A stretch of DNA of 64,000 bases, taken from Fibrobacteria bacterium (lineage in GTDB: Bacteria > Fibrobacterota > Fibrobacteria > UBA11236). The position numbers and the translations under genes are program-made. The stretch covers positions 1 through 64,000 of the forward strand of contig JAYTHY010000059.1 of the NCBI GenBank assembly GCA_043732185.1, read 5' to 3'. Shown here in pieces: positions 1 to 51,125 of this stretch; the first letter of the stretch is position 1; each line of letters starts with the position of its first letter. The notes under the pieces were generated by a model. That model had not been told where the DNA came from. It was given only the letters and a program-made list of their open reading frames with translations, and made no database searches.

Positions 1-497
1 AGCGAACGCTGTTGGCCCAATCCAGGACTCGACAGGAAATGAAATCGGCCAAGGTAGGAACCTTCCAATTTGGCGGAAAGAACACCGTAACCATAGGTCT
101 GTGCTTTAGGGATGGAATCCTGGCCTAAAACTGTTGCGTAAAAATCCGCACCGGCGCTGAGATCGAAGTTTTCGTCACGGTAGGTGATTGGCCGATAATG
201 GGTTTCTTCAGAGGCAATGAAGCCAAATTCACGCCGATAGCCGAGGAGACGAACTTTTTCTCCATCCGATAGGGAAGCCGTATGACCTGCGGCTTCTTCA
301 AGCAGCGTCCCGACGAGCGATTTTGGCAGCGGTATGGTATTGAGAAATCCAGGCGAAATGCAGCCTTCTAATTCCATTCGTCGTAAGAAGCCATACACCG
401 GGTCGTTTATGTCCACGGGCGTAGCGGTGGCGGTAAGCACGAACGAAAAGAATAGCGCAATCCCAATTGCTCTGGGGCGAGTGAGTACGGGAAGCAT
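1..497 (-). CDS. Secreted outer-membrane protein, capsule assembly Wzi-like N-terminus (runs off the window edge; missing from the ORF track)
   Basis: Manual translation from ATG 497 is open to base 1: MLPVLTRPRAIGIALFFSFVLTATA-TPVDINDPVYGFLRRMELEGCISPGFLNTIPLPKSLVGTLLEE. Signal peptide followed by a 'PVYxFLxR..G...P' helical cap resembling Wzi-family proteins. Starts 16 bp after the upstream stop. Confidence 0.6.
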   Translation of the reverse strand, partial: MLPVLTRPRAIGIALFFSFVLTATATPVDINDPVYGFLRRMELEGCISPGFLNTIPLPKSLVGTLLEEAAGHTASLSDGEKVRLLGYRREFGFIASEETHYRPITYRDENFDLSAGADFYATVLGQDSIPKAQTYGYGVLSAKLEGSYLGRFHFLSSPGLGQQRS

Positions 498-513
498 GAT
501 TCTCTTAAAAATA

Positions 514-1818
514 TCAGACAGACGTTTTTGACTTCTTAATCTTGACGTAGTCTTCTAGGCTATAGGACCTTTCCGCTTCATCCGGAACCGGATTTGGTTC
601 AAGTTCCGGTTCAACGGACGCTTGGGGGTTCTCATGGGAAGCAACTTCAAACCCGTGATTATACTGGGCTTCCAAGCCTTCCTGATGTCTCTGTCTGTCA
701 CTACCGTGTAAGTTCGCTGTGGATCCGAACAGGTCAATTCCATCCAGTGCAGACATGTCCAAGGTTGGCATTTCCTGCTGAAACTTTTGCGCTAAATTCA
801 TGCCTTCTGAAGTCGCTTCCATCAACATTTCTTGAAGTCGGATCGGAATAGTTAATCGTCCCAACATCGTGCTGATTTTAATGGTTTCCGAATTTGCAAG
901 TTCGTAAATCCCGAAATAGCAAGTGGCGCCATTGGTTAGCAATTTGAATTCCTCCCCGAGCATGTTCAAAAACTGGCTGGACGTTTGCTTAAGGACTGCC
1001 TCTGGAGCATAGATGCTTATGGCACCGCAAGCGGCCGTAGCCAGGTTGAAGCCGTCAGCCATTAATGGGCCAGCGGACCAAATTTCTCTAAGGCGCGGAA
1101 GGATATCGTCCAAAGACTTGATCTGGCTGACGGGCACTTCCGTTTCTCCGAAAATCAGAATGCCTCGGGAAAGGAGTACTTTACGGAAATCTTCATTGTC
1201 AAAACTAAGGAGGCTGCGCGAAGAATATTCCGTCGTGGTAGAATTGAAATTATTAAAAGTCTTGACCACATATTCATTAGCCTGGGGATAGAAGGCGGAC
1301 AAGTTGCTATTCGGGAATTGGACCAGGATTTTATGATTATCGACGATGATGCAGGAATCGAAGTTTTCCGCTATGAGACCGTTGATGGCGCGAAGGGCAT
1401 TGATTTTGGAAAGTGCAGATTCTTCATTGGTAGGAATCGTGACCAAAGTCAAAATGGGAAGATTGAATCGCTTCAAGACATTACCAAGCAGCGCGATGTT
1501 GCTGCCCGTACCACCACCCAATCCCGCAGTAATTAGCACAGCCTCGGCACCGATCAGAAATTGTTCAATGTCGGTGAGTATATTGGGAAGGTGGGAGATA
1601 ATCGCTCGTTCTCCAATGTGTGGGTCTTTTCCAGCGCCGTCGCTGTCAGGAAGTGGGGTGTACACTTTCCGGTTTTCCGGAATATTGGCCAAGTCCTTCA
1701 AATCCAGAATGGAAGTATTGATGGCCATGGAGGGATACCCATATTTGGCAAAGGTATTCGCCAAGTTACCACCGCATTGCCCTAATCCGATAACTGCTAA
1801 TTTAATTCTGTTTGTCAT
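514..1818 (-). CDS. Divergent tubulin/FtsZ-family GTPase (TubZ/CetZ-like, not canonical FtsZ)
   Basis: T1 GLGQCGGN, INT..DL, GAGKD, signature GLGGGTGS, IIVDN, T7-like SFDNED. SD AAGGA upstream. Confidence 0.9.
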   Translation of the reverse strand: MTNRIKLAVIGLGQCGGNLANTFAKYGYPSMAINTSILDLKDLANIPENRKVYTPLPDSDGAGKDPHIGERAIISHLPNILTDIEQFLIGAEAVLITAGLGGGTGSNIALLGNVLKRFNLPILTLVTIPTNEESALSKINALRAINGLIAENFDSCIIVDNHKILVQFPNSNLSAFYPQANEYVVKTFNNFNSTTTEYSSRSLLSFDNEDFRKVLLSRGILIFGETEVPVSQIKSLDDILPRLREIWSAGPLMADGFNLATAACGAISIYAPEAVLKQTSSQFLNMLGEEFKLLTNGATCYFGIYELANSETIKISTMLGRLTIPIRLQEMLMEATSEGMNLAQKFQQEMPTLDMSALDGIDLFGSTANLHGSDRQRHQEGLEAQYNHGFEVASHENPQASVEPELEPNPVPDEAERSYSLEDYVKIKKSKTSV

Positions 1819-1907
1819 GAAATTCCTTGCGTCGTTTGGAATGAATCAGGGACGTCATGCCCTTATCCAGGCCCAGCAATAGTGTCCAGGGGTAATCTAT
1901 AAATCCG

Positions 1908-1922
1908 GCAACCGTGCTGCCA
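1908..1922 (-). promoter_or_regulatory. Putative sigma54 (-24/-12) promoter of the tubulin-like gene
   Basis: Minus strand reads TGGCAGCACGGTTGC (TGGCA-N6-TTGC), giving exact GG-N10-GC spacing, in the 120-bp gap after sufU. Confidence 0.55.
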
Positions 1923-1938
1923 TGAAAAAAGTCGAGTG

Positions 1939-2394
1939 CTATGCTTCCGTCGAGGTGCTGGACTGCTTGTCCATGGCGCCAATCAGGGCATGCCAAGGTA
2001 GGGAGGCGCATTTAATCCGGGAGGAATACTCCCGCACTCCCTTGAATAGCGTCAATTTTCCCAAATGATGTGCTTGGGTGTCTGTATCGAGTTCGCCCAG
2101 TACCATTTTGTGAAATTCACTGAAAAGTAAGCGGGCCTGATCGATGTGGATCCCTTTTAGGAACACAGTCATCATGGAGGCGCTGGCTTTGGATATGGCG
2201 CAGCCATTGCCTTGAAAACTTAAATCCGTAATCGTTCCGGTTTCATCCACTTGCAGGTATACGGTGATATGATCGCCGCATAATGGGTTATGGCCTTCAC
2301 AAACCAAAGAGGCTTCGGGCAGAGCACGGTAGTTTCGGGGATTCTTATTGTGATCGAGAATCACCTGCTGATACAGCTCATTGGCGCGCGACAT
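1939..2394 (-). CDS. sufU: SufU Fe-S assembly sulfurtransferase/scaffold
   Basis: LYQQVILDH, NPLCGD, GCAISKAS, RIKCASLPW. Start MSRANE at 2394 overlaps the sufS stop; the ORF track over-extends it to 2526. Confidence 0.93.
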   Translation of the reverse strand: MSRANELYQQVILDHNKNPRNYRALPEASLVCEGHNPLCGDHITVYLQVDETGTITDLSFQGNGCAISKASASMMTVFLKGIHIDQARLLFSEFHKMVLGELDTDTQAHHLGKLTLFKGVREYSSRIKCASLPWHALIGAMDKQSSTSTEA

Positions 2395-3623
2395 CAGGCA
2401 AACATCTCTATTACTTTGCGAATCCCGGTGGCCAAGGCATCCAGATCCGAACGTTGGTTGTACGGTCCCAGCGAAGCCCGGGCAGTGGCGGGAACTCCAT
2501 ACCGGTCCATGGTGGGTTGGGCGCAATGGTGTCCGGCGCGGATGGCAATGCCTTCGGCATCGAGCAAGGTTCCAATATCATGGGGGTGAATTCCAGCTAG
2601 GGTAAAAGCCAATATCGAAGCCTTATGCGGTGCCGTTCCAATGAGTTTGAGTCCAGGGATGTCCTGCAAGAGCGCCGTTCCATATTCGAGAAGGTCGTTC
2701 TCATGTGCGGCAATTCGATCGAGTCCAACTTTGTTTAGGTACTCAACCGCGGCCCCAAGGCCAACCACTTCTACAATGGGGGGCGTCCCGGCCTCAAACC
2801 GATACGGTGGGGCCTGGTAGGTGGTGTTGGCGAAGGTGACTTTTTGAATCATATCGCCACCGCTTTGGTACGGGGGCATTTTTTCCAACAGCGCCATTTT
2901 CCCGTAAAGGATTCCAATGCCGGTGGGGCCGAACATTTTATGTCCTGAGAATGCGAAAAAGTCCGCGTCGAGGGCTTGCACATCCACTGCCATATGGGCG
3001 ATGCTTTGGGCTCCATCAATCAGGACCACGGCTCCGACGGCATGGGCCATTTTTATGATTTCGCCAACTGGATTAACCGTCCCTAGCGCGTTGGAAATCT
3101 GGTTAACCGCCACGATACGGGTGCGCGGCGTGAGCAATTTAGCGTATTCGTCCATCCGCAAGGTGCCGGCATCATCTACTGGAATGACTTTGAGGACAGC
3201 GCCGGTCATGGCCGCCGCTATCTGCCAAGGTACGATGTTGGCATGATGTTCGATCTGGGACACAATGATTTCATCCCCGGATTTCAGAAATGGACGGGCA
3301 AAACTATGGGCAACCAGATTGATACTTTGCGTGGTGCCGCTGGTATAGATGATTTCCCGTTCGCTGGCGGCATGGATAAGCCCTGCAATCTGTTTGCGGG
3401 TATTTTCATAGGCTGCCGTCGCCTTTTCACTCAGTCGGTACACGCCCCTACGCACGGTGCCGTAGCTTTCCAGGTAGAATTGATGCATGGATTCGATGAC
3501 CACCAAGGGCTTTTGCGTCGTGGCAGCGCTGTCGAGATAGTAAAGGGGCTGATCAGCATTCACCCGGTTAAGCAGGGGAAAATCGGATTTGATATTGAGC
3601 AGTGGCAGTGTATTGTCAGGCAT
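2394..3623 (-). CDS. sufS: Cysteine desulfurase SufS
   Basis: YLDSAATTQKP, PLP-lysine motif FSGHKM, RAGHHCA (group II). Confidence 0.96.
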   Translation of the reverse strand: MPDNTLPLLNIKSDFPLLNRVNADQPLYYLDSAATTQKPLVVIESMHQFYLESYGTVRRGVYRLSEKATAAYENTRKQIAGLIHAASEREIIYTSGTTQSINLVAHSFARPFLKSGDEIIVSQIEHHANIVPWQIAAAMTGAVLKVIPVDDAGTLRMDEYAKLLTPRTRIVAVNQISNALGTVNPVGEIIKMAHAVGAVVLIDGAQSIAHMAVDVQALDADFFAFSGHKMFGPTGIGILYGKMALLEKMPPYQSGGDMIQKVTFANTTYQAPPYRFEAGTPPIVEVVGLGAAVEYLNKVGLDRIAAHENDLLEYGTALLQDIPGLKLIGTAPHKASILAFTLAGIHPHDIGTLLDAEGIAIRAGHHCAQPTMDRYGVPATARASLGPYNQRSDLDALATGIRKVIEMFA

Positions 3624-8288: not shown

Positions 8289-8381
8289 ATCCAAGTGTCC
8301 TTCCAGGCAACCTAACCGTATAAGGGTGAGAAGCAAAGTGGCTCAAATTGCAAGCGCAACCGACTAAGGTCAATATAACAT

Positions 8382-35961: not shown

Positions 35962-38900
35962 ATGAAGCCAACAAGCAAGCAGTTTCCGATGACCTTACGG
36001 TTTGTGCTTATTCTTTTTCTGCTGATTTTCTTGGCCATTCCGGCTTTAGCGGAATCCCCATTGTCCCAACACCAATTTGAACGCGTATTGGAAGACACTC
36101 CCGAAAAACTGGTATTAGAAATTTCCAATCCGGACTTTAACTTAGTTCGCGTAGATGAGGCAGGTACCTTTCAAGTGACCTGTAACGGGTGTTCCCGATC
36201 TGGAATTCCCGGTTCCCCAGATTTGCCAGTATATCGATTTGACGTGATTACAGGTACTTCCGCCCCACAAGTAAAAATCAATATTCTTGAGACAGAGACG
36301 CGCACAGTGATGGGGGGTATTTCGCCCTATCCGAATTTCTTATCGCCCACAAAAATGGAATACCACGCGGACGTCCGCCTCTTCCGCGAGGCAGCCAATC
36401 TAGAGCCACAATTGCTCAATGTCCGCACGCTCAGAGGCGTGCCCATTCGAGGCATTGAAACGCCTTTGACACTTTGGTCCGAATCTGGTAAAACTTTAAC
36501 CTTGATCAAAAGAATGCAAGTAGAAGTTCGGTTTGCGGGAGTTTTTGGCCAACGAGCGACAAATAGGTTGTCGGGTTCTTTCGCCGCAGCGGTAAAAAAT
36601 CCTCTCGGAGGTGCGTATTTGTACCGATCCAATTCACCGGTTGCCTTGCGTAAGAACTCGGCTGCACATTTCGAATTGGGAAATCGGTTTATCCGGTTTA
36701 AAATTGGTGACCGCAATTTGGAAAATTTGGATGAGGACCGCGTCTATGGCGTTTCCTTTTCGGATTTGGTACGTGTCGCGACGGATTTGAATGGAGTGAG
36801 CGTTTCCAATTTGAGAATGTATACGGGTCCAAACGATAGTTTATCGCGTGACATGCAAGCACAAATTCTACCCGGTACTTTGCGGGAAATCCCCATTGAA
36901 GTTCTGGATAAAAACGGGAATAAAACCTTCGATGAAGGGGATTCGGTTCGCTTCTTTGCGCATGGAACCAGCCTCTGGACGCGGCTTCCTGGAAACCGTG
37001 GCCCCATTCGTTATGAATTCACATCAGATCCCTATTCGTTTGAGAATTATTATTTCCTCGATTTTTCTGAAAGTGGGAAAACGGGGGCTGCCTTGCGACT
37101 CAGCGAATCCGCTTCGGTACCGGTGGTTTCTCCTGTTAAAACCTCTTCATATAGTTACCTGCGCGCTGAAAAAGATTTGCAAACTGCAGCTTGTGATCCC
37201 AGTGGTCATAAAGATGAGGAAACCGGTTTTGATTGGTATTGGTATTGGAAGGGCAACGGTTGTGAAGGAGACAATGGGACTACTTTGTCCAAGTCCCAAC
37301 TCGCCAGTGATGAAACCGACTCCCTTCCTGATCTCGACCGAAGCATACCCGGAGACTCCATTTTCGTTGGTTTCTATGTTGCTCAGCTTGTTCAGGATAG
37401 TGGCTTCACAGTTTACTTTGGTGGCAACGGTGATGCACTAGACATTTTGCGAGTGCCAATTCAAGATACATCCGTGCACCCTCTACCAAACTATTCGCCA
37501 GGCAGCTACTATGTTTGGACAAAACCTGTAAAAGACGCTCCAGTATTCCAACTGGACTCTCTAAAGTGGCCGCGGGAACGTCGCTTCGAGGGGTATACAG
37601 TGAGTTATCGGCGTAATCACGTTTTTTCTGGGAAGCCGCTTTGGATATACCCTACGGAATTTGGGAAGCCTGTATCCTATAAAGTAAGTGGTGGGGAGGG
37701 CAAGCAGTGTTTGCGCATCGAAGATGGTGTGGCAGTTCGGCGGATGGTTCTGGATGGCTCGGAAACATTTACTGACAGCCTATCAGTGGGAGCGAATGCG
37801 AGATATTTTATCTACTCCAATGCAACAGGATTATCTCCAGCCAGCACTGAGTTTCAATCCCTACCCTCAACCGGTACATCGCTCCGAAATTTGGAAACAG
37901 GAGATGGCGAAAATCCGGAATATATTATCGTAACACCGGCTTCTCTCCTTCATGAGGCTCTAGAGCTTAAAGACTACCGAAACAAAGTTTCACGCAGCGT
38001 GCACGTGCGCACCTCCGTTGTTCAAGTGGAGGACATCTATCGTCAGTTCTCAAGCGGTCGGTTATCAACGGTAGCCATTCGCGATTTTCTGCGTTGGGCG
38101 TATTCAGGTTGGGGCACCAAGAGTAGCGATTCTCATGCGCTCAAATATGTGCTTTTATTTGGAGATGGAAATTATGATTTTCGGAATATAAAGGCATCGG
38201 TGATGAAAGCGGCTCCGCCAAATTTAATTCCGCCCTTCGAGTGCTTTCCTTTTGACAATGATGAAATTGCAACCGATGATTTTTACGCAGCGCTCGATTC
38301 GAATGAAAATGACTTGCTCAATCTCGGTCTAGATGTTTCCGTTGGTCGACTCCCGGTACAGTCAGCGGATCAGGCCAAGGCATATCTCCAAAAAATTAAG
38401 GACTACGAAGATCCTACAAAGGCTGGGGAATGGCGCTCGCGTGTTATTATGGCCGCCGATGACGCCACCCAACGCGGCGCGAATGGTGACTATGACCCAA
38501 TTCCGCGCGGCCATACCACCGATTCTGATAACCTAGGCAAAGACATTAATGGGAATGAGCCTGCGGTTTCCGTGGACAAAATTTATCTACTGGATTACCC
38601 GATGAATTCGTCGTACCACAAACCTGAAGCGACGCAAGACTTGCTTTCCCTTATTAACCGCGGTGCCGTTATGGTCAACTATGTGGGGCATGGGGCGTCT
38701 AACCAGTGGGCGGATGAAGCCTTGCTTTTGACAAATGACGCTCTTTCGAGGATGCATAATGAAGGCCGCACTCCTATGATAAATGCTTTTTCCTGCACAG
38801 TGGGTCGATTTGAAAGTTTAACTGGGGAAGGAATGAGTGAGCAATTTGTTAAACAAAAAGGTGTGGGGGCGATTGCAGCGATCTCATCTACTCGCGAATC

Positions 38901-40212
38901 CTATCCCGAAGTCAATATTGCTTTAGCAAGCGCCTTTTATCGACGAGTCTTTCCAGCAGATTCATCTAGTGAGGAGCAAACCATTGGCCAAGCTTTACAA
39001 TTAGCTAAAAATAGTTCTGAAACCAATGCTCCCGGTGGTAATCGCAATGACCTCAAATACGCGCTCTTGGGCGAGCCAGTTATTATGCTACGTAAGCCAA
39101 AGTTGGGAATCACAATTACCCAAGCTCCGGACACCCTTAAAGCATTGGATTGCAACTCTATCACAGGAAAGATTACCGGTGGCAGTGGGGCTGGTTTTGT
39201 AAACATTAAAATAGTTGCGGGTTCGATCCATAAGACATACGTCATCGGTCATGGCATGGTAGCCCAAGAAGTCGATAAGCGTGGAAATATTCTTTTCGAA
39301 AGGACCTTTCCGTATAAGGACTTCACCTTTTCCAGCGACTACTTTATCCCTAAACAAATTTCCTTTGGGGATTCTACAGCTCAAATTCTTTTTTTCGCCT
39401 GGGATGGAAAAGAGGAACGCGAGGGTCTAGCCGCCAGGCAGAATCTCCGTATTACTGGAACCGCCACTAGTGCCTGCGCTACCGACACGGACGGAAAAGG
39501 CCCCCGCATTCAAATCACCGGCTGCCAGAAAAAGGAAACCGATGCAATTGACTTTCCCGATCGGGTGAAGCTGCCTATACCGTATTGTCTGCAGGTCCAG
39601 GTGCAAGATTCAACAGGCGGTGTGCTGACTGGTCAGGGGCCGGATGAGGGCACAACGCTCGAAATTCCCGGTATCCTTGAGCCATTTCATCCCCAGCCTG
39701 GCATCGATGAACTCTATTACAAAACCTATCAGATTTCCCTCGACAAAAAAACCTTTAGGCCCGGCCAGCATTTGCTCAAAGTTTCGGCTCGGGACGGGTA
39801 TGGCAATATCAGCGCGCGACAGATGGTGATGGATCTGACGGCAGATAGTTCATTGCAAACCGTGTCGGCCTACAACGTGCCCAATCCTATGAAACGAAAC
39901 GGCACCACCTTTTACTTTTCCACCATCTTGCCTACGGAAGACGTCGACTTTGCCGATTTAAGCAATGCCGCGGATAGGGTAGGGTTTGAAATCCGGGTGT
40001 TTAATCAATCTGGAAAATTGGTTAAAGTTTTTCAGCACGCTTTAAGCGGTGAAATCCGCTGGGACGGGCATGATGAATGGGGCCAACTTTTGGCCAACGG
40101 GGTGTATTTCTACAAAATCACGGCGAGGCAGAGTTTGGCCAGTTTGGCTGGTGCTCGGCCAAGTTACCGTACTCTCAGTTCCAAGCGCAATGTCCTGATT
40201 ATTTCGCGCTGA
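35962..40212 (+). CDS. porU: Type IX secretion system sortase PorU-like C25 peptidase
   Basis: Signal peptide; C25 propeptide-like region; YVLLFGDGNYD, TDDFY, VGRLP; catalytic NYVGHG and FSC; C-terminal YNVPNP...WDG...ANGVYFYKI. Confidence 0.85.
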   Translation: MKPTSKQFPMTLRFVLILFLLIFLAIPALAESPLSQHQFERVLEDTPEKLVLEISNPDFNLVRVDEAGTFQVTCNGCSRSGIPGSPDLPVYRFDVITGTSAPQVKINILETETRTVMGGISPYPNFLSPTKMEYHADVRLFREAANLEPQLLNVRTLRGVPIRGIETPLTLWSESGKTLTLIKRMQVEVRFAGVFGQRATNRLSGSFAAAVKNPLGGAYLYRSNSPVALRKNSAAHFELGNRFIRFKIGDRNLENLDEDRVYGVSFSDLVRVATDLNGVSVSNLRMYTGPNDSLSRDMQAQILPGTLREIPIEVLDKNGNKTFDEGDSVRFFAHGTSLWTRLPGNRGPIRYEFTSDPYSFENYYFLDFSESGKTGAALRLSESASVPVVSPVKTSSYSYLRAEKDLQTAACDPSGHKDEETGFDWYWYWKGNGCEGDNGTTLSKSQLASDETDSLPDLDRSIPGDSIFVGFYVAQLVQDSGFTVYFGGNGDALDILRVPIQDTSVHPLPNYSPGSYYVWTKPVKDAPVFQLDSLKWPRERRFEGYTVSYRRNHVFSGKPLWIYPTEFGKPVSYKVSGGEGKQCLRIEDGVAVRRMVLDGSETFTDSLSVGANARYFIYSNATGLSPASTEFQSLPSTGTSLRNLETGDGENPEYIIVTPASLLHEALELKDYRNKVSRSVHVRTSVVQVEDIYRQFSSGRLSTVAIRDFLRWAYSGWGTKSSDSHALKYVLLFGDGNYDFRNIKASVMKAAPPNLIPPFECFPFDNDEIATDDFYAALDSNENDLLNLGLDVSVGRLPVQSADQAKAYLQKIKDYEDPTKAGEWRSRVIMAADDATQRGANGDYDPIPRGHTTDSDNLGKDINGNEPAVSVDKIYLLDYPMNSSYHKPEATQDLLSLINRGAVMVNYVGHGASNQWADEALLLTNDALSRMHNEGRTPMINAFSCTVGRFESLTGEGMSEQFVKQKGVGAIAAISSTRESYPEVNIALASAFYRRVFPADSSSEEQTIGQALQLAKNSSETNAPGGNRNDLKYALLGEPVIMLRKPKLGITITQAPDTLKALDCNSITGKITGGSGAGFVNIKIVAGSIHKTYVIGHGMVAQEVDKRGNILFERTFPYKDFTFSSDYFIPKQISFGDSTAQILFFAWDGKEEREGLAARQNLRITGTATSACATDTDGKGPRIQITGCQKKETDAIDFPDRVKLPIPYCLQVQVQDSTGGVLTGQGPDEGTTLEIPGILEPFHPQPGIDELYYKTYQISLDKKTFRPGQHLLKVSARDGYGNISARQMVMDLTADSSLQTVSAYNVPNPMKRNGTTFYFSTILPTEDVDFADLSNAADRVGFEIRVFNQSGKLVKVFQHALSGEIRWDGHDEWGQLLANGVYFYKITARQSLASLAGARPSYRTLSSKRNVLIISR

Positions 40213-49224: not shown

Positions 49225-50163
49225 TCACACCAATCGGTTTCTAGGATGGAAACTTTTGTGAACTTCCTGTAAGTAAGCGGCATCCAAATGGGTATAGATC
49301 TGTGTGGTGCTGATATCAGCATGACCCAACATTTCCTGCACGGAGCGCAAATCGGCGCCGGCATCGATAAGATGGGTGGCAAAAGAATGGCGAAAAGTAT
49401 GCGGAGACACGGGCGTTTTAATGTCAGCAGTTTCGCATATGGCACGGACGATTTTCCATGCGCCCATGCGCGAAAGTGGTTTTCCAAATCGATTAAGTAG
49501 AAGCGTGTCGGAGGTGGTTCGCGAGGCATCCCTCTCCAATTGCAAATAATTTTTCAGGGTCTGGGCCACTTTTGAACCAAGGGGAACCATGCGCTGTTTG
49601 CTGCCTTTACCTTGGACTAAGACAATTCCATCTTGAGTCTTTACCTGATCCAGTTTTAAACCAATCGCTTCCGATATCCTTAAACCCAATCCATACAACA
49701 GTTCCACCATACAAAGGTTGCGCCACGATCCCTTGGCCTCCAGTTTTACGGAATGCTCCAAGGAGGCGTAGAGTGATTCGATTTCCGCTCTGGTGAGGCT
49801 CGCCGGTTTGTATTTCTGTTGCCGCGGCCCTTCCAGGCCTACCGTGGGATCAATGACAAGAAGGTCTTCATCGGCTAGAAAAGTGGCGTAGCTTTTTAGC
49901 GTCGAAATATATCGGGAAATACTGGTGGCTGCAAATCCCAGATCGATCAGACTCTGGATGAACGCCCTCAGATTATTGAGATTCAGGTCATCGGGAATCA
50001 AATCCCTGTCCATATTTTTCCGGGCATGCCGCACAAATAAATTTAAATCAGAACGATAGGCGGAAACAGTTTCTGGGCTTAATCGCCTTTCCAATTGCAG
50101 ATGGGCTAAATAGCCCTCCTCGTAGGGAATGATAGGTTTGTAATTGGCTAGACCTTCTCGCAT
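49225..50163 (-). CDS. xerD: Tyrosine recombinase XerD-like
   Basis: LERRLSPETVSAYRSDL, GLRISE, GKGSKQRMVP, SPHTFRHSFATHL, LRSVQEMLGHADISTTQIY. Confidence 0.85.
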   Translation of the reverse strand: MREGLANYKPIIPYEEGYLAHLQLERRLSPETVSAYRSDLNLFVRHARKNMDRDLIPDDLNLNNLRAFIQSLIDLGFAATSISRYISTLKSYATFLADEDLLVIDPTVGLEGPRQQKYKPASLTRAEIESLYASLEHSVKLEAKGSWRNLCMVELLYGLGLRISEAIGLKLDQVKTQDGIVLVQGKGSKQRMVPLGSKVAQTLKNYLQLERDASRTTSDTLLLNRFGKPLSRMGAWKIVRAICETADIKTPVSPHTFRHSFATHLIDAGADLRSVQEMLGHADISTTQIYTHLDAAYLQEVHKSFHPRNRLV

Positions 50164-50351: not shown

Positions 50352-51125
50352 TTAGAGGAATAGGTTGCCTTGCTGGCTTTCCGGCCTTGGATCGGCCGGT
50401 TTTTTTTCCACCTCGACAATTTCCATTCTTTCCTCATGGAGTGGTCTACACAGCTGTAAAGCTTCCTCCGGAGTGGTTTTCGGGTCCAACCAGCGCAAGG
50501 CTTCCTGTTCAGTCAATATTAAGGGAATGCGTTCATGCCATATCCCCTCGATTTTGGCATTTCCGCGGCTGCTCATGGTAATAATGGAGCAAGAATCGAG
50601 TCTTTCTGCATTACGCACCCAGGTGTCATAAACGGCTCCTAAATAATAGGTCCCGTCCAATTGGACCTTGTACTCTTTGCCTTTGAATTCCGGGGGTGCG
50701 CCATCCATATTCGGGCGCTCCTTAAACGCATGGCTTGGCAGAACACATCGCAAGCCTTCCTGCCAAGGTTTCTTGAAAGAGGCCAATGAGCGAATTGTTT
50801 CGACACGGGCATTGTAGGAGTCAAAGCCCCACGACTTACCGGTTAAGGGATTTTTGGAACGGGAATTTTTCTTTTTAAGGACTTGGGTAAGGGATAGTGT
50901 CGGTTCGCCAATAAGAAAATCACGTGGCACCAAATCCCAGCGAAAGGGCCGAGTTTGGAAGCGATGATCCTGGAAAAGTACCGCGCCAACCGTGTCTTTG
51001 GCATAGTGAAAGCCATCCTTGCGAATGACGATTTTCCCCTCGCGTTCCAGTCGGAAAAATTCGGCGCGATCTACCCAATCAGTGCCCCCTTCCGTTCCTT
51101 GGACTGGATAAAACCCATAACACAT
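50352..51125 (-). CDS. SOS response-associated peptidase (SRAP/YedK/HMCES family, abasic-site protein)
   Basis: Cys2, RWDLVP, YNARVET, RCVLP..FKE, HERIPLIL, WLDP. Confidence 0.88.
   Translation of the reverse strand: MCYGFYPVQGTEGGTDWVDRAEFFRLEREGKIVIRKDGFHYAKDTVGAVLFQDHRFQTRPFRWDLVPRDFLIGEPTLSLTQVLKKKNSRSKNPLTGKSWGFDSYNARVETIRSLASFKKPWQEGLRCVLPSHAFKERPNMDGAPPEFKGKEYKVQLDGTYYLGAVYDTWVRNAERLDSCSIITMSSRGNAKIEGIWHERIPLILTEQEALRWLDPKTTPEEALQLCRPLHEERMEIVEVEKKPADPRPESQQGNLFL

Follow-up and report, generated by a model that had tools for sequence, protein, structure and literature searches.

The window, a stretch of 64,000 nucleotides from a Fibrobacteria contig, carries close to its first base a tubZ-like gene (tubZl) that lies between sufU and a gene labelled Wzi-like. 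The features of the locus are listed below in reading direction.

1939..2400, minus strand: sufU, last gene of an nfu-sufBCDSU cluster that extends to 8336 (144 bits for TIGR01994, cut-off 92.5)
1819..1938, minus strand: spacer between sufU and tubZl; it holds a ribosome-binding site, AAGGA, and in degenerate form a block that relatives conserve
514..1818, minus strand: tubZl, 434 amino acids plus stop, with a GTPase domain, a TubZ-type C-terminal domain, a linker and a tail peptide
1765..1782, minus strand: T1 loop GQCGGN, residues 13-18; G13, G16, G17 and N18 invariant in 50 family sequences
1501..1524, minus strand: T4 tubulin signature GLGGGTGS, residues 99-106; G99 and G101 to S106 invariant in the same 50 sequences
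1189..1206, minus strand: T7 loop SFDNED, residues 205-210; D207 and D210 are the catalytic positions, and D207, E209 and D210 are invariant
727..768, minus strand: motif PTLDMSALDGIDLF, residues 351-364, past the last helix; L353 and F364 at least 90% conserved in alignments
568..723, minus strand: linker, residues 366-417, acidic, disordered and of variable length (pLDDT below 50 at 369-417)
517..567, minus strand: C-terminal peptide SYSLEDYVKIKKSKTSV, residues 418-434; helix predicted at 421-432, pLDDT of the block 77
3..497, minus strand: Wzi-like gene of outer-membrane type, N-terminal 165 of 559 amino acids, 16 nt downstream of tubZl

The product of the open reading frame at 514-1818 is a real and intact GTPase of the tubulin/FtsZ superfamily, which has kept all nucleotide loops and both acidic T7 residues. 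Its Tubulin domain (PF00091) scores 65.1 bits against a Pfam cut-off of 33, and the TubZ-like_C domain (PF22453) passes marginally, by about 1 bit (27.3 against 26). The motifs GQCGGN, GGGTGS and SFDNED reported in a preliminary description of this DNA are present at residues 13-18, 101-106 and 205-210, the first within GLGQCGGN (residues 11-18), and the T1, T3, T4, T5, T6 and T7 residues do not vary among 50 sequences whose identity to the query is 29-76%. The T1 Gln is also found in CetZ1 (GFGQAGG) and in one plasmid TubZ (GFGQYGG), RepX having GLGMGG. HMMER aligns D207 and D210 with both Asp of the FtsZ T7 motif NxDxxD, and the same positions with FDxxE of RepX. A beta-tubulin-like register that reads T7 as NxDFRK and puts Lys in the catalytic place was rejected since HMMER aligns SFDNED with NxDxxD. 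The family consensus of the motif at residues 351-364 reads LPxLD(L/I)SxxxxMELF. tubZl is under strong purifying selection: comparisons with three near relatives gave dN/dS values of 0.06, 0.07 and 0.09, the last of them spanning the tail half.

The TubZ-like protein is not the division FtsZ of this cell. It reaches 81.4 bits with the TIGR00065 ftsZ model, for which the cut-off is 295.2, Pfam finds no FtsZ_C domain (PF12327) in it, and tubZl has no dcw context, its neighbours being sufU and the Wzi-like gene. The canonical ftsZ of the genome, which codes for a protein with an FtsZ_C domain and 410 bits for TIGR00065, adjoins ftsA on another contig. tubZl is a second paralogue of the tubulin superfamily, as the preliminary description had proposed, rather than the sole ftsZ of its genome. 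It remains quite improbable that its product would serve division in an accessory manner, as a diverged FtsZ paralogue co-assembling with the Z ring or modulating it. Such a role would agree with the E-value of 7.7e-23 for the ftsZ model, with the label "cell division GTPase FtsZ" borne by relatives in several sources, and with an FtsZ-like architecture in which a disordered linker joins the core to a terminal peptide, beyond the superfamily, nucleotide loops and T7 Asp residues that both proteins share. However, the match lies far under the ftsZ cut-off, the FtsZ_C domain, PxFL peptide and division-gene context are all missing, the protein branches outside the FtsZ clade (100/99 in the tree presented below), and FtsZ folds stand about 10 Z units below those of TubZ. 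Furthermore, 274 of the 296 genomes in the phylum lack the gene, although these organisms must divide too.

By sequence and predicted fold, the nearest solved relatives are Bacillus TubZ/RepX, followed by CetZ, with FtsZ well behind. TubZ and RepX are the type III partition tubulins of plasmids and phages from Bacillus and Clostridium (PDB 4ei7, 2xka, 3m89, 4xcq), and CetZ proteins are cell-shape tubulin homologues of archaea (PDB 4b45, 4b46, 3zid). A sequence search of solved structures returned RepX/TubZ 4ei7 as the best match (2e-19), against 1e-14 for FtsZ. The AF2 model of the protein (pLDDT 85.4, above 90 for the core at residues 1-350) again retrieved 4ei7 first in Foldseek (E 2e-26, TM 0.72/0.81) and superposes on it with an rmsd of 2.4 over 340 residues. 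VIA-align Z scores were 39.1 (4ei7), 37.8 (2xka) and 37.2 for TubZ, 35.2, 34.6 and down to 33.2 for CetZ, at most 29.5 for FtsZ and about 27 for tubulins.

To place the family, a careful tree of 54 rows and a quick tree of 103 rows were built, neither including tubulins, BtubAB, artubulins or FtsZl1/2; 4b46 served to verify the CetZ references. The 54-row tree is split at 99/92 into FtsZ plus CetZ on one side and a TubZ-like supergroup on the other. Within the latter, a family clade of 26 rows that includes tubZl is supported at 98/94, the Fibrobacteria sequences and those bearing HEAT repeats group together at 99/95, and plasmid TubZ/RepX form a separate clade (99/94). The FtsZ and CetZ clades are supported at 100/99 and 100/100, and the TubZ-like protein lies outside both. 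The quick tree likewise recovers the family, as a clade of 43 rows with a support of 100. In the trees, tubZl belongs to a distinct and well-supported clade, apart from plasmid TubZ/RepX, CetZ and FtsZ. The groups on the TubZ-like side are joined by weak deep branches (values 40-82), and several rows are long-branched, which limits how closely the sister group of the family clade can be fixed. Sequence, fold and tree thus agree with the label TubZ/CetZ-like given in the preliminary description, and they contradict the grouping with canonical FtsZ that it had named as a possible refutation. Its suggestion of a new system must be tempered: the clade is undescribed, our literature search having found no paper on it, yet the family is widespread, with 93 cluster representatives at E <= 1e-30. 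Clusters of the Protein Atlas (Myxococcota, Bacillota, viral TubZ-like and CetZ) give the same picture.

The proximity to TubZ/RepX raises the question of a DNA segregation role. On plasmids or phages, tubZ normally adjoins the gene of TubR, a small adaptor that binds DNA, as well as a centromere. The likeness is real in several respects, namely the TubZ-like_C domain, the T7 form FDxx(D/E), the flexible tail with a basic end that comes after a long last helix, and the position on the same side of the main split of the tree (99/92), the branches in between being weak. The TubZ-like protein could have come to the chromosome as the motor of a type III (TubZRC-like) segregation system, and pull DNA through an unlinked or unrecognised TubR-like adaptor that binds its basic tail. 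In favour of this, TubZ/RepX are the nearest solved relatives by sequence and fold, and plasmid TubZ/RepX as well as gp138 of phage G also end in short basic tails, as the query does with KIKKSK. We nonetheless consider this scenario unlikely. All three plasmid TubZ genes that were fetched are directly preceded by an ORF of 105-111 amino acids, for which no Pfam family was found, whereas upstream of tubZl there is sufU across a spacer of 121 nt, with no small ORF. A profile built from these three ORFs in TubR position, weak and devoid of a positive control, gave zero matches in the genome. Identity to TubZ/RepX is only 22-27%, the clades are separate, and RepX carries an N-terminal extension of about 20 residues that, judging from alignment offsets, the TubZ-like protein lacks. 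Its tail peptide is also unlike theirs, and most clade members bear HEAT repeats, a protein-binding module, at the tail end.

The mobile context expected of such a motor is missing as well. tubZl lies on a chromosome, and its vicinity holds neither a TubR-like ORF nor a mobile gene, as had been noted from the window itself. Although the contig ends at base 1, within the Wzi-like gene, the DNA past this gene in the closest relative holds ordinary genes (TauE, BrkB-like, MgsA) and not the prophage or plasmid with tubR that might have been feared there. The viral contigs yielded 15 distant matches, at most 31% identical (36% in short fragments) and none close, the best being limited to the GTPase domain; PHROGs returned only a weak PhuZ match of 32 bits. 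The idea that the gene was domesticated from a mobile element finds no backing here: its clade is distinct from that of plasmid TubZ/RepX, and the viral contigs yielded no close relative.

Close kin of tubZl are undescribed, HEAT-capped chromosomal TubZ-like proteins from Nitrospirae, Deltaproteobacteria/Myxococcales and other MAGs, which fall in the same clade (98/94, 99/95) and are 30-45% identical to the query over residues 1-370. They share GLGQ(C/A)GGN, GLGGGTGS, FDxEDFRK and LPxLDLSxxxxMELF with it, and their genes also stand alone, with no conserved neighbour in the five loci scanned. HEAT repeats are found at the C-terminal end of most clade members, which come from other phyla: precomputed Pfam lists hold a HEAT entry in P0045-P0073 and none in the Fibrobacteria rows P0001-P0044, and Pfam reported no HEAT family in the query. 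The Fibrobacteria branch differs in having a disordered linker and a conserved 13-residue peptide instead. A split-off HEAT partner was also sought with the 83-amino-acid HEAT tail of a relative, which gave no significant match in the genome (best E 0.4).

The Fibrobacteria tail is acidic and P/E-rich and ends in ...RSYSLEDYVKIKKSKTSV, its last six residues being KIKKSK. As first described, it lacks the FtsZ peptide, no PxFL(R/K) being found in YSLEDYVKIKKSKTSV, while the genome's own FtsZ ends in ...TPAFLRNQAD; the protein ends three residues past the end originally quoted. The linker differs in length and sequence between relatives, one of which has a far longer insert, and the terminal (R)xYSLE(E/D)YV(K/R)LKK is conserved throughout the Fibrobacteria clade. 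Neither the tail peptide nor the LDxS..LF motif was found outside tubZl in a six-frame regex search of the genome. A membrane-targeting helix was considered for the peptide and rejected (hydrophobic moment 0.1-0.3, negative mean hydrophobicity). Since the HEAT module holds the same position in sister lineages, the tail can be viewed as the adaptor end of the protein. It may bind a partner, as the C-terminal peptide of FtsZ and the tail of TubZ suggest by analogy.

Gene order points to no such partner. In 19 of 20 loci sufU lies directly upstream of tubZl, on the same strand and 74-321 nt away. tubZl could close the suf operon, its product working with the Fe-S cluster assembly machinery, a reading helped by this arrangement and by the failure to find a terminator-like site between sufU and tubZl. 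We give it very little credit. The link is missing in one Fibrobacteria genome (L023/G262) and in the four members scanned from other lineages (L026, L027, L029, L031), suf clusters are intact without tubZl, and the spacers of relatives contain a conserved promoter-like block; the pattern rather fits gene order inherited within one order. When 18 sufU-tubZl spacers were aligned, TTTG-N21-TAnnTTTA was detected in 6 of them, against 0.05 in shuffles, the window's own copy being devoid of the motif. A scan of positions 1-2600 for sigma-70 promoters and terminators found none between sufU and tubZl, other promoter types being outside its scope. For the conserved spacer block TGGC...TTGCA, a sigma-54 promoter was dropped because GG and GC stand 2 nt too far apart for the consensus.

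On the other side, the identification of sufU stands, whereas the label Wzi-like is weak: the orthologue of L006 alone matches Caps_assemb_Wzi (31.9 bits, cut-off 30.1), and Pfam matched no family in the 165-amino-acid piece of the window or in the full-length copy of L025, a 90% identical orthologue. Only in this genome and its nearest relative is this gene directly beside tubZl; in 11 other loci it lies 2.6-6.2 kb away with other ORFs in between, the first of which is an acyl-CoA dehydrogenase in both loci scanned. Nothing points to the role in envelope organisation, shape or motility that had been suggested. No conserved non-housekeeping neighbour was found in the Fibrobacteria loci or in five loci of other lineages, nor did PADLOC detect any defence system.

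tubZl is chromosomal and vertically inherited. A chromosome of 3.75 Mb and a contig of 389 kb carry family members, and identity to the TubZ-like protein of the window drops in step with SufS identity. The gene occurs in 22 of 296 Fibrobacterota genomes, all from one order; genus g6 has it in a single genome out of 12. Two g6 genomes that lack it have, directly after sufU, the acyl-CoA dehydrogenase gene that comes after tubZl in L006. Relatives with small genomes cleanly lack tubZl, and relatives without it have intact suf clusters. Since streamlined relatives lost it, tubZl can be regarded as an accessory gene.

Other non-canonical members of the superfamily resemble the TubZ-like protein less. 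CetZ provides the second-best folds, shares the T1 Gln and likewise comprises non-division tubulin paralogues; however, CetZ groups with FtsZ, and the bacterial protein studied here shows no CetZ_C match at E <= 0.1. FtsZl1 and FtsZl2 are presented by Makarova and Koonin (2010, PMC2875224) as non-canonical bacterial superfamily members obtained by genome mining, FtsZl1 being about 1000 amino acids long with a coiled coil and a T6-H7 region that is not recognisable, and FtsZl2 being restricted to Proteobacteria and having an unrelated C-terminal region of 300 amino acids. Santana-Molina et al. tied Pfam Tubulin_2 to both. The TubZ-like protein differs from them in architecture, and it scores 13.2 bits for Tubulin_2 (PF13809), against a cut-off of 27.

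Taken together, we propose, with a probability of roughly 0.7, that tubZl is an accessory, stand-alone chromosomal member of an undescribed TubZ-like clade, coding for a GTP-dependent filament that tethers through its tail and that is neither the division FtsZ nor a plasmid-partition TubZ. A partner-tethering cytomotive filament is the most likely reading of its function. The protein would bind GTP via its intact T1-T6 loops and polymerise head to tail, D207 and D210 of T7 completing the GTPase site of the next subunit, which would produce dynamic filaments of the TubZ type. The flexible linker of about 50 residues would then bear the terminal peptide YSLEEYVKLKK and couple the filament to a partner encoded elsewhere.

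Polymerisation would be lost if the protein had become a GTP-binding regulator or switch, which we hold to be highly improbable. The family has no characterised member, and a complex prediction with two copies of residues 1-370 and GTP scored 0.00 against a mark of 0.42, a result that gives no verdict either way. On the other hand, the T7 residues are invariant family-wide, and their sole known role, in tubulin and FtsZ, is to complete the active site of the neighbouring subunit in the protofilament. Moreover, the full two-domain polymer fold is kept, with Z scores above 35 to TubZ protofilament structures.

Few bacterial tubulin homologues have a known role: FtsZ in division, TubZ and PhuZ in the positioning of plasmid and phage DNA, and BtubAB. 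The TubZ-like protein would be a chromosomal, vertically inherited and strongly conserved homologue that has no DNA-adaptor gene, from a clade in which a HEAT module and a short peptide have replaced one another as tail. Together, these traits suggest filaments that serve another cargo. More tentatively, and at somewhat less than even odds, the whole clade might be a TubR-independent chromosomal tubulin-filament system with an interchangeable adaptor end, a HEAT cap in Nitrospirota and Myxococcota-type members and a short linear peptide in Fibrobacteria. In bacteria with larger genomes, its filament would position or organise not DNA but a cellular cargo, such as a protein or an envelope complex. 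The breadth of the family (the 93 cluster representatives) opens hosts more tractable than the uncultured Fibrobacteria, and the clean presence or absence of tubZl between sufU and the acyl-CoA dehydrogenase gene offers natural "knock-out" genomes for comparison. If true, the clade would be a bacterial counterpart, in role, of archaeal CetZ, reached from the TubZ side of the superfamily.

The tubulin-superfamily gene of the window, tubZl, begins with an ATG codon 6 nt downstream of an AAGGA ribosome-binding site. Residues 7-165 of its product match Pfam Tubulin (PF00091; 65.1 bits, cut-off 33) and residues 200-330 match TubZ-like_C (PF22453; 27.3 bits, cut-off 26). Every motif named in the preliminary description, which had proposed an orphan TubZ/CetZ-like tubulin, was found in the protein.

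Features of tubZl
514-1818, minus strand: tubZl open reading frame, 434 aa
Residues 11-18: GLGQCGGN motif
Residues 99-106: GLGGGTGS motif
Residues 205-210: SFDNED motif (T7)

The nucleotide loops and T7 are the invariant columns of a 50-sequence family alignment spanning 29-76% identity to tubZl: G11, G13, G16, G17, N18, G61-A62-G63, D65, G99, G101-S106, P129, E133, D160-N161, N181, D207, E209 and D210. In HMMER alignments, D207 and D210 line up with both aspartates of the FtsZ T7 motif NxDxxD and with FDxxE of RepX, which excludes a beta-tubulin-like T7 register placing a lysine at the catalytic position.

tubZl is clearly separate from the division protein. It scores 81.4 bits against the NCBIfam ftsZ equivalog, whose cut-off is 295.2. 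A search of the whole genome (4.46 Mb in 139 contigs, with the window occupying the initial 64 kb of contig C59) revealed exactly two tubulin-domain genes, tubZl and one on contig C96. The latter reaches 410 bits, contains an FtsZ_C domain, lies directly after ftsA and encodes a protein ending in TPAFLRNQAD. tubZl is therefore not the only ftsZ-type gene of the genome: the separate canonical copy that the preliminary description had suggested looking for exists, and tubZl is a second paralogue rather than FtsZ.

The top PDB sequence match of tubZl is Bacillus RepX/TubZ (4ei7, 2e-19), followed by FtsZ (1e-14) and CetZ1 (4b46, 7e-14), and its identity to plasmid TubZ/RepX is 23-27%. An AlphaFold2 model built from the 50-sequence alignment has a mean pLDDT of 85.4, exceeding 90 in the core (residues 1-350) and falling below 50 at residues 369-417, ahead of a terminal helix (421-432). 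Foldseek ranked Bacillus cereus TubZ first (E 2e-26, TM 0.72/0.81), then CetZ2, CetZ1, Bacillus thuringiensis TubZ and FtsZ, and structural alignment likewise placed Bacillus TubZ ahead. As judged from sequence and model, the tubZl product is a predicted GTPase of the tubulin superfamily, intact and under strong constraint, that adopts a TubZ-type fold.

VIA-align Z scores of the tubZl model
TubZ (Bacillus): 39.1 / 37.8 / 37.2 / 35.2
CetZ: 35.2 / 34.6 / 33.2
Phage c-st TubZ: 32.7
FtsZ: 29.5 or less
Tubulins: about 27

The family is large and layered. At E <= 0.001, a word-indexed search recovered 661 proteins from 8000 scored candidates; exhaustive comparison with 1.84 billion cluster representatives yielded 4171 matches at E <= 1e-3, 627 at 1e-10 and 93 at 1e-30. 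Homologues at 56-100% identity belong, wherever named, to Fibrobacteria or Fibrobacterota MAGs. Those at 38-45% have a length of about 450 aa and carry HEAT and HEAT_2 domains in their precomputed annotation, their names including Nitrospirae and Deltaproteobacteria, and those at 30-37% are 400-720 aa long, many with HEAT-like ends, with names including Myxococcales and Polyangiales. The core motifs GLGQ(C/A/G)GGN, G(L/M/F)GGGTGS and FDxEDFRK-like run through all 120 homologues listed. Matches in the phage collection were limited to phage G gp138 and a single record without annotation.

Phylogenetic references comprised six canonical FtsZ (the genome's own and five metagenomic proteins above the TIGR00065 cut-off), ten CetZ sequences 45-100% identical to one metagenomic CetZ1 orthologue (this orthologue and one other verified against 4b46, at 687 and 604 bits), three plasmid TubZ/RepX, phage G gp138 and phiKZ PhuZ. 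In a quick LG+G4 tree of 103 rows, the tubZl family (43 rows) has an SH-aLRT of 100 and stands apart both from FtsZ+CetZ and from a looser group containing plasmid TubZ/RepX. A careful LG+C20 tree has 54 rows: PhuZ (branch length 2.55 in the quick tree) was removed beforehand, as were every second "mid" row on average, two in three of the "deep" representatives, four rows each of CetZ and of metagenome sequences lacking a label, and a single FtsZ-like row with a low score. This tree splits FtsZ+CetZ from a TubZ-like supergroup at 99/92, within which the deeper groups are joined by weak branches (40-82).

Support for clades in the careful tree
tubZl family (26 rows): 98/94
Plasmid TubZ/RepX: 99/94
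Fibrobacteria: 100/100
Fibrobacteria plus HEAT-bearing sequences: 99/95

The two trees disagree on whether the HEAT group encloses the Fibrobacteria branch or forms its sister. These sequence trees, both built without tubulin, BtubAB, artubulin or FtsZl1/2, place tubZl in a clade of its own.

Beyond the globular part, the 42 Fibrobacteria-clade sequences share four elements.

C-terminal elements of the Fibrobacteria clade
Long helix: tubZl residues 326-347 in the AlphaFold2 model
LPTLD(I/M)SxL(D/E)xM(E/D)LF: after the long helix, shared by the entire family, with at least 90% conservation of L353 and F364
Linker: variable in sequence and length, with a far longer insert in one member
(R)xYSLE(E/D)YV(K/R)LKKxK: conserved end at the C-terminus

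The tail peptide has a hydrophobic moment of 0.1-0.3 and a negative mean hydrophobicity, and is therefore unlike a membrane-targeting helix. Neither it nor the LDxS..LF motif occurs a second time in the six-frame translation of the genome. The HEAT repeats of relatives occupy the same position, so that tubZl differs from HEAT-capped members of its clade in bearing a peptide tail in place of the usual cap. No split-off HEAT partner was apparent in the genome when the 83-aa HEAT tail of one relative was used as query (best E 0.4). In the HEAT-capped homologues P0073 and P0056, ...MLDYDKVVQYLKKE... immediately precedes the HEAT repeats and bears a faint likeness to the Fibrobacteria end YSLEEYVKLKK. 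The tail peptide might be what remains of a lost HEAT module's first helix, the similarity being very short.

Gene order was compared across 21 related loci of the genome collection, of which 20 include upstream DNA. sufU lies directly upstream of the tubZl homologue on the same strand in 19 of these 20, preceded by sufS, sufD, sufC, sufB and an Nfu-like gene as far as the contigs extend; the sole exception is the Fibrobacteria locus L023, where a GH57 branching enzyme and a DUF4912 protein are found instead. Five loci of more distant family members (L026, L027, L029, L031 and L033) share no neighbours with each other or with the window. Because other phyla, and one Fibrobacteria genome, lack the suf linkage, it is best read as inherited gene order. 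Downstream, a same-strand ORF of 634-671 aa follows tubZl in 14 of the 15 loci listed. In both loci scanned (L023 and another Fibrobacteria locus, L006) it is an acyl-CoA dehydrogenase, followed by an opposite-strand protein of ~510 aa (~517 aa) without assignment and by the Wzi-like gene, which is separated from tubZl by these two genes in most relatives. The window and its closest relative's locus, L025 (94% identical), lack both genes, the Wzi-like gene lying 16-20 nt after tubZl. Comparison of window 3-1818 with L006 9275-13531 shows that deletion of the intervening pair puts it at 16 nt.

Base 1 is a contig end, as the window starts contig C59. Past the Wzi-like gene, L025 continues with TauE, a BrkB-like protein, an ORF without assignment and MgsA, and no mobile genes were seen there; a tubR-bearing prophage or plasmid past base 1, the alternative raised in the preliminary description, consequently finds no support in that locus. 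Beyond base 8300, the other 41 ORFs of at least 100 aa are ordinary chromosomal genes, including those for a class II aminoacyl-tRNA synthetase, a sugar kinase, two-component systems, an SLT-LysM transglycosylase, NrdR, phosphofructokinase, a Xer-type recombinase and arginine decarboxylase, and base composition is flat over the whole window. Three of these genes deserve mention.

35962-40212, plus strand: 1416-aa protein combining a Peptidase_C25 (gingipain-type) domain with an FlgD_ig-like domain at its C-terminus, adjoining an S49 peptidase and the SLT-LysM transglycosylase
49225-50163 and 50352-51125, both minus strand: tyrosine recombinase (Phage_integrase plus SAM-like N-terminal domain, the XerC/D architecture) beside an SRAP peptidase, with no other phage genes seen around the pair

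All three plasmid TubZ loci carry an ORF of 105-111 aa directly upstream, at the TubR position, whereas the window has only a 121-nt spacer; tubZl is a TubZ-like protein without the TubR adaptor. On a Bacillus mycoides plasmid (L106, 2006-2341), the 111-aa ORF at this position before repX is annotated "cell division protein FtsZ", which looks like a misannotation. The distant TubZ-like gene of L033 (30% identity; its long branch falls outside the tubZl clade) lies between two small ORFs without Pfam family (202-552 and 1869-2285), with Flp-pilus genes (RcpC/CpaB) downstream. The first of these ORFs, upstream and 116 aa long, stops 3 nt ahead of the tubulin gene start and is a possible adaptor.

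A scan for sigma-70-type promoters, the only type sought, and for intrinsic terminators found neither between sufU and tubZl. Eighteen aligned spacers (window 1819-1938 and L005-L024) contain a conserved block of ~33 nt, 55-100 nt ahead of the start codon; TTTG-N21-TAnnTTTA fits 6 of the 18, compared with 0.05 on average after mononucleotide shuffling, and the window's own block is alignable but degenerate. The block resembles the Bacteroidota-type primary promoter (-33 TTTG, -7 TAnnTTTG), a sequence hint, not proof, of a separate tubZl promoter.

At E <= 1e-20, tubZl was detected in 22 of 296 Fibrobacterota genomes, in families f1 (20 of 31, the window's genome left out) and f3 (1 of 1) and in no other family (among them f6, 0 of 151, and f13, 0 of 46). 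All 14 genomes of the window's genus are positive, versus 1 of 12 in genus g6. These counts include the unpublished genome G254 (one of the 22, one of the 14 and the source of locus L118), and the distribution statements are unchanged when it is left out. The negative g6 genomes measure 1.9-2.7 Mb, five being 98-100% complete, and the single positive one 3.8 Mb. In two of them (L134 of G273 and L138 of G266), an acyl-CoA dehydrogenase gene 77% identical to the L006 copy follows sufU after ~0.3 and ~0.55 kb with no tubZl between, a clean absence at the equivalent site; in the seven other loci fetched from negative g6 genomes, neither tubZl nor the dehydrogenase gene was seen. These two small-genome relatives (2.2-2.7 Mb) present a natural presence/absence polymorphism at the sufU-acyl-CoA dehydrogenase site that could serve comparative work. 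Compared with its three closest relatives, tubZl has Nei-Gojobori dN/dS values of 0.06 (aa 1-277), 0.07 (aa 1-218) and 0.09 (aa 283-434, taking in linker and tail peptide). Identity to the window declines in parallel for tubZl and SufS (L005, 74%/85%; L006, 71%/81%; L019, 60%/68%; L021, 56%/64%), a pattern that fits vertical descent within the order. tubZl is chromosomal, vertically inherited within one order and dispensable in streamlined relatives.

In tubulin, FtsZ and TubZ, the T7 acidic residues activate the GTP of the neighbouring subunit upon head-to-tail stacking. By analogy, tubZl subunits would stack in the same manner, T7 activating the neighbour's GTP, and GTP-driven filaments are expected because the invariance of these residues is sensible only with such stacking. 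The flexible linker and conserved end may tether a partner, presumably as in the linker-plus-peptide layout of FtsZ and the TubZ tail; this reading is supported by the HEAT module, a repeat that binds proteins, which sister lineages carry at this position.

The literature compared comprised Santana-Molina et al. 2023 (PMC9871819), Makarova and Koonin 2010 (PMC2875224), the 2026 Asgard tubulin paper (PMC13394414) and Findeisen et al. 2014 (PMC4202323). The passages compared treat TubZ as a plasmid protein of Firmicutes and make no mention of Fibrobacter, Myxococc-, Nitrospir- or HEAT-tailed tubulin homologues. Across full-text literature, with subscription journals and supplements outside its scope, our search found no publication describing TubZ-like proteins of a chromosomal or HEAT-fused family, and we therefore call the tubZl family undescribed. 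The orphan tubulin of the preliminary description is confirmed as an observation, and its interpretation as a domesticated polymerising GTPase with a non-division role is supported in part. The present example comes from uncultured organisms; the tubZl family itself is real and unexplored.
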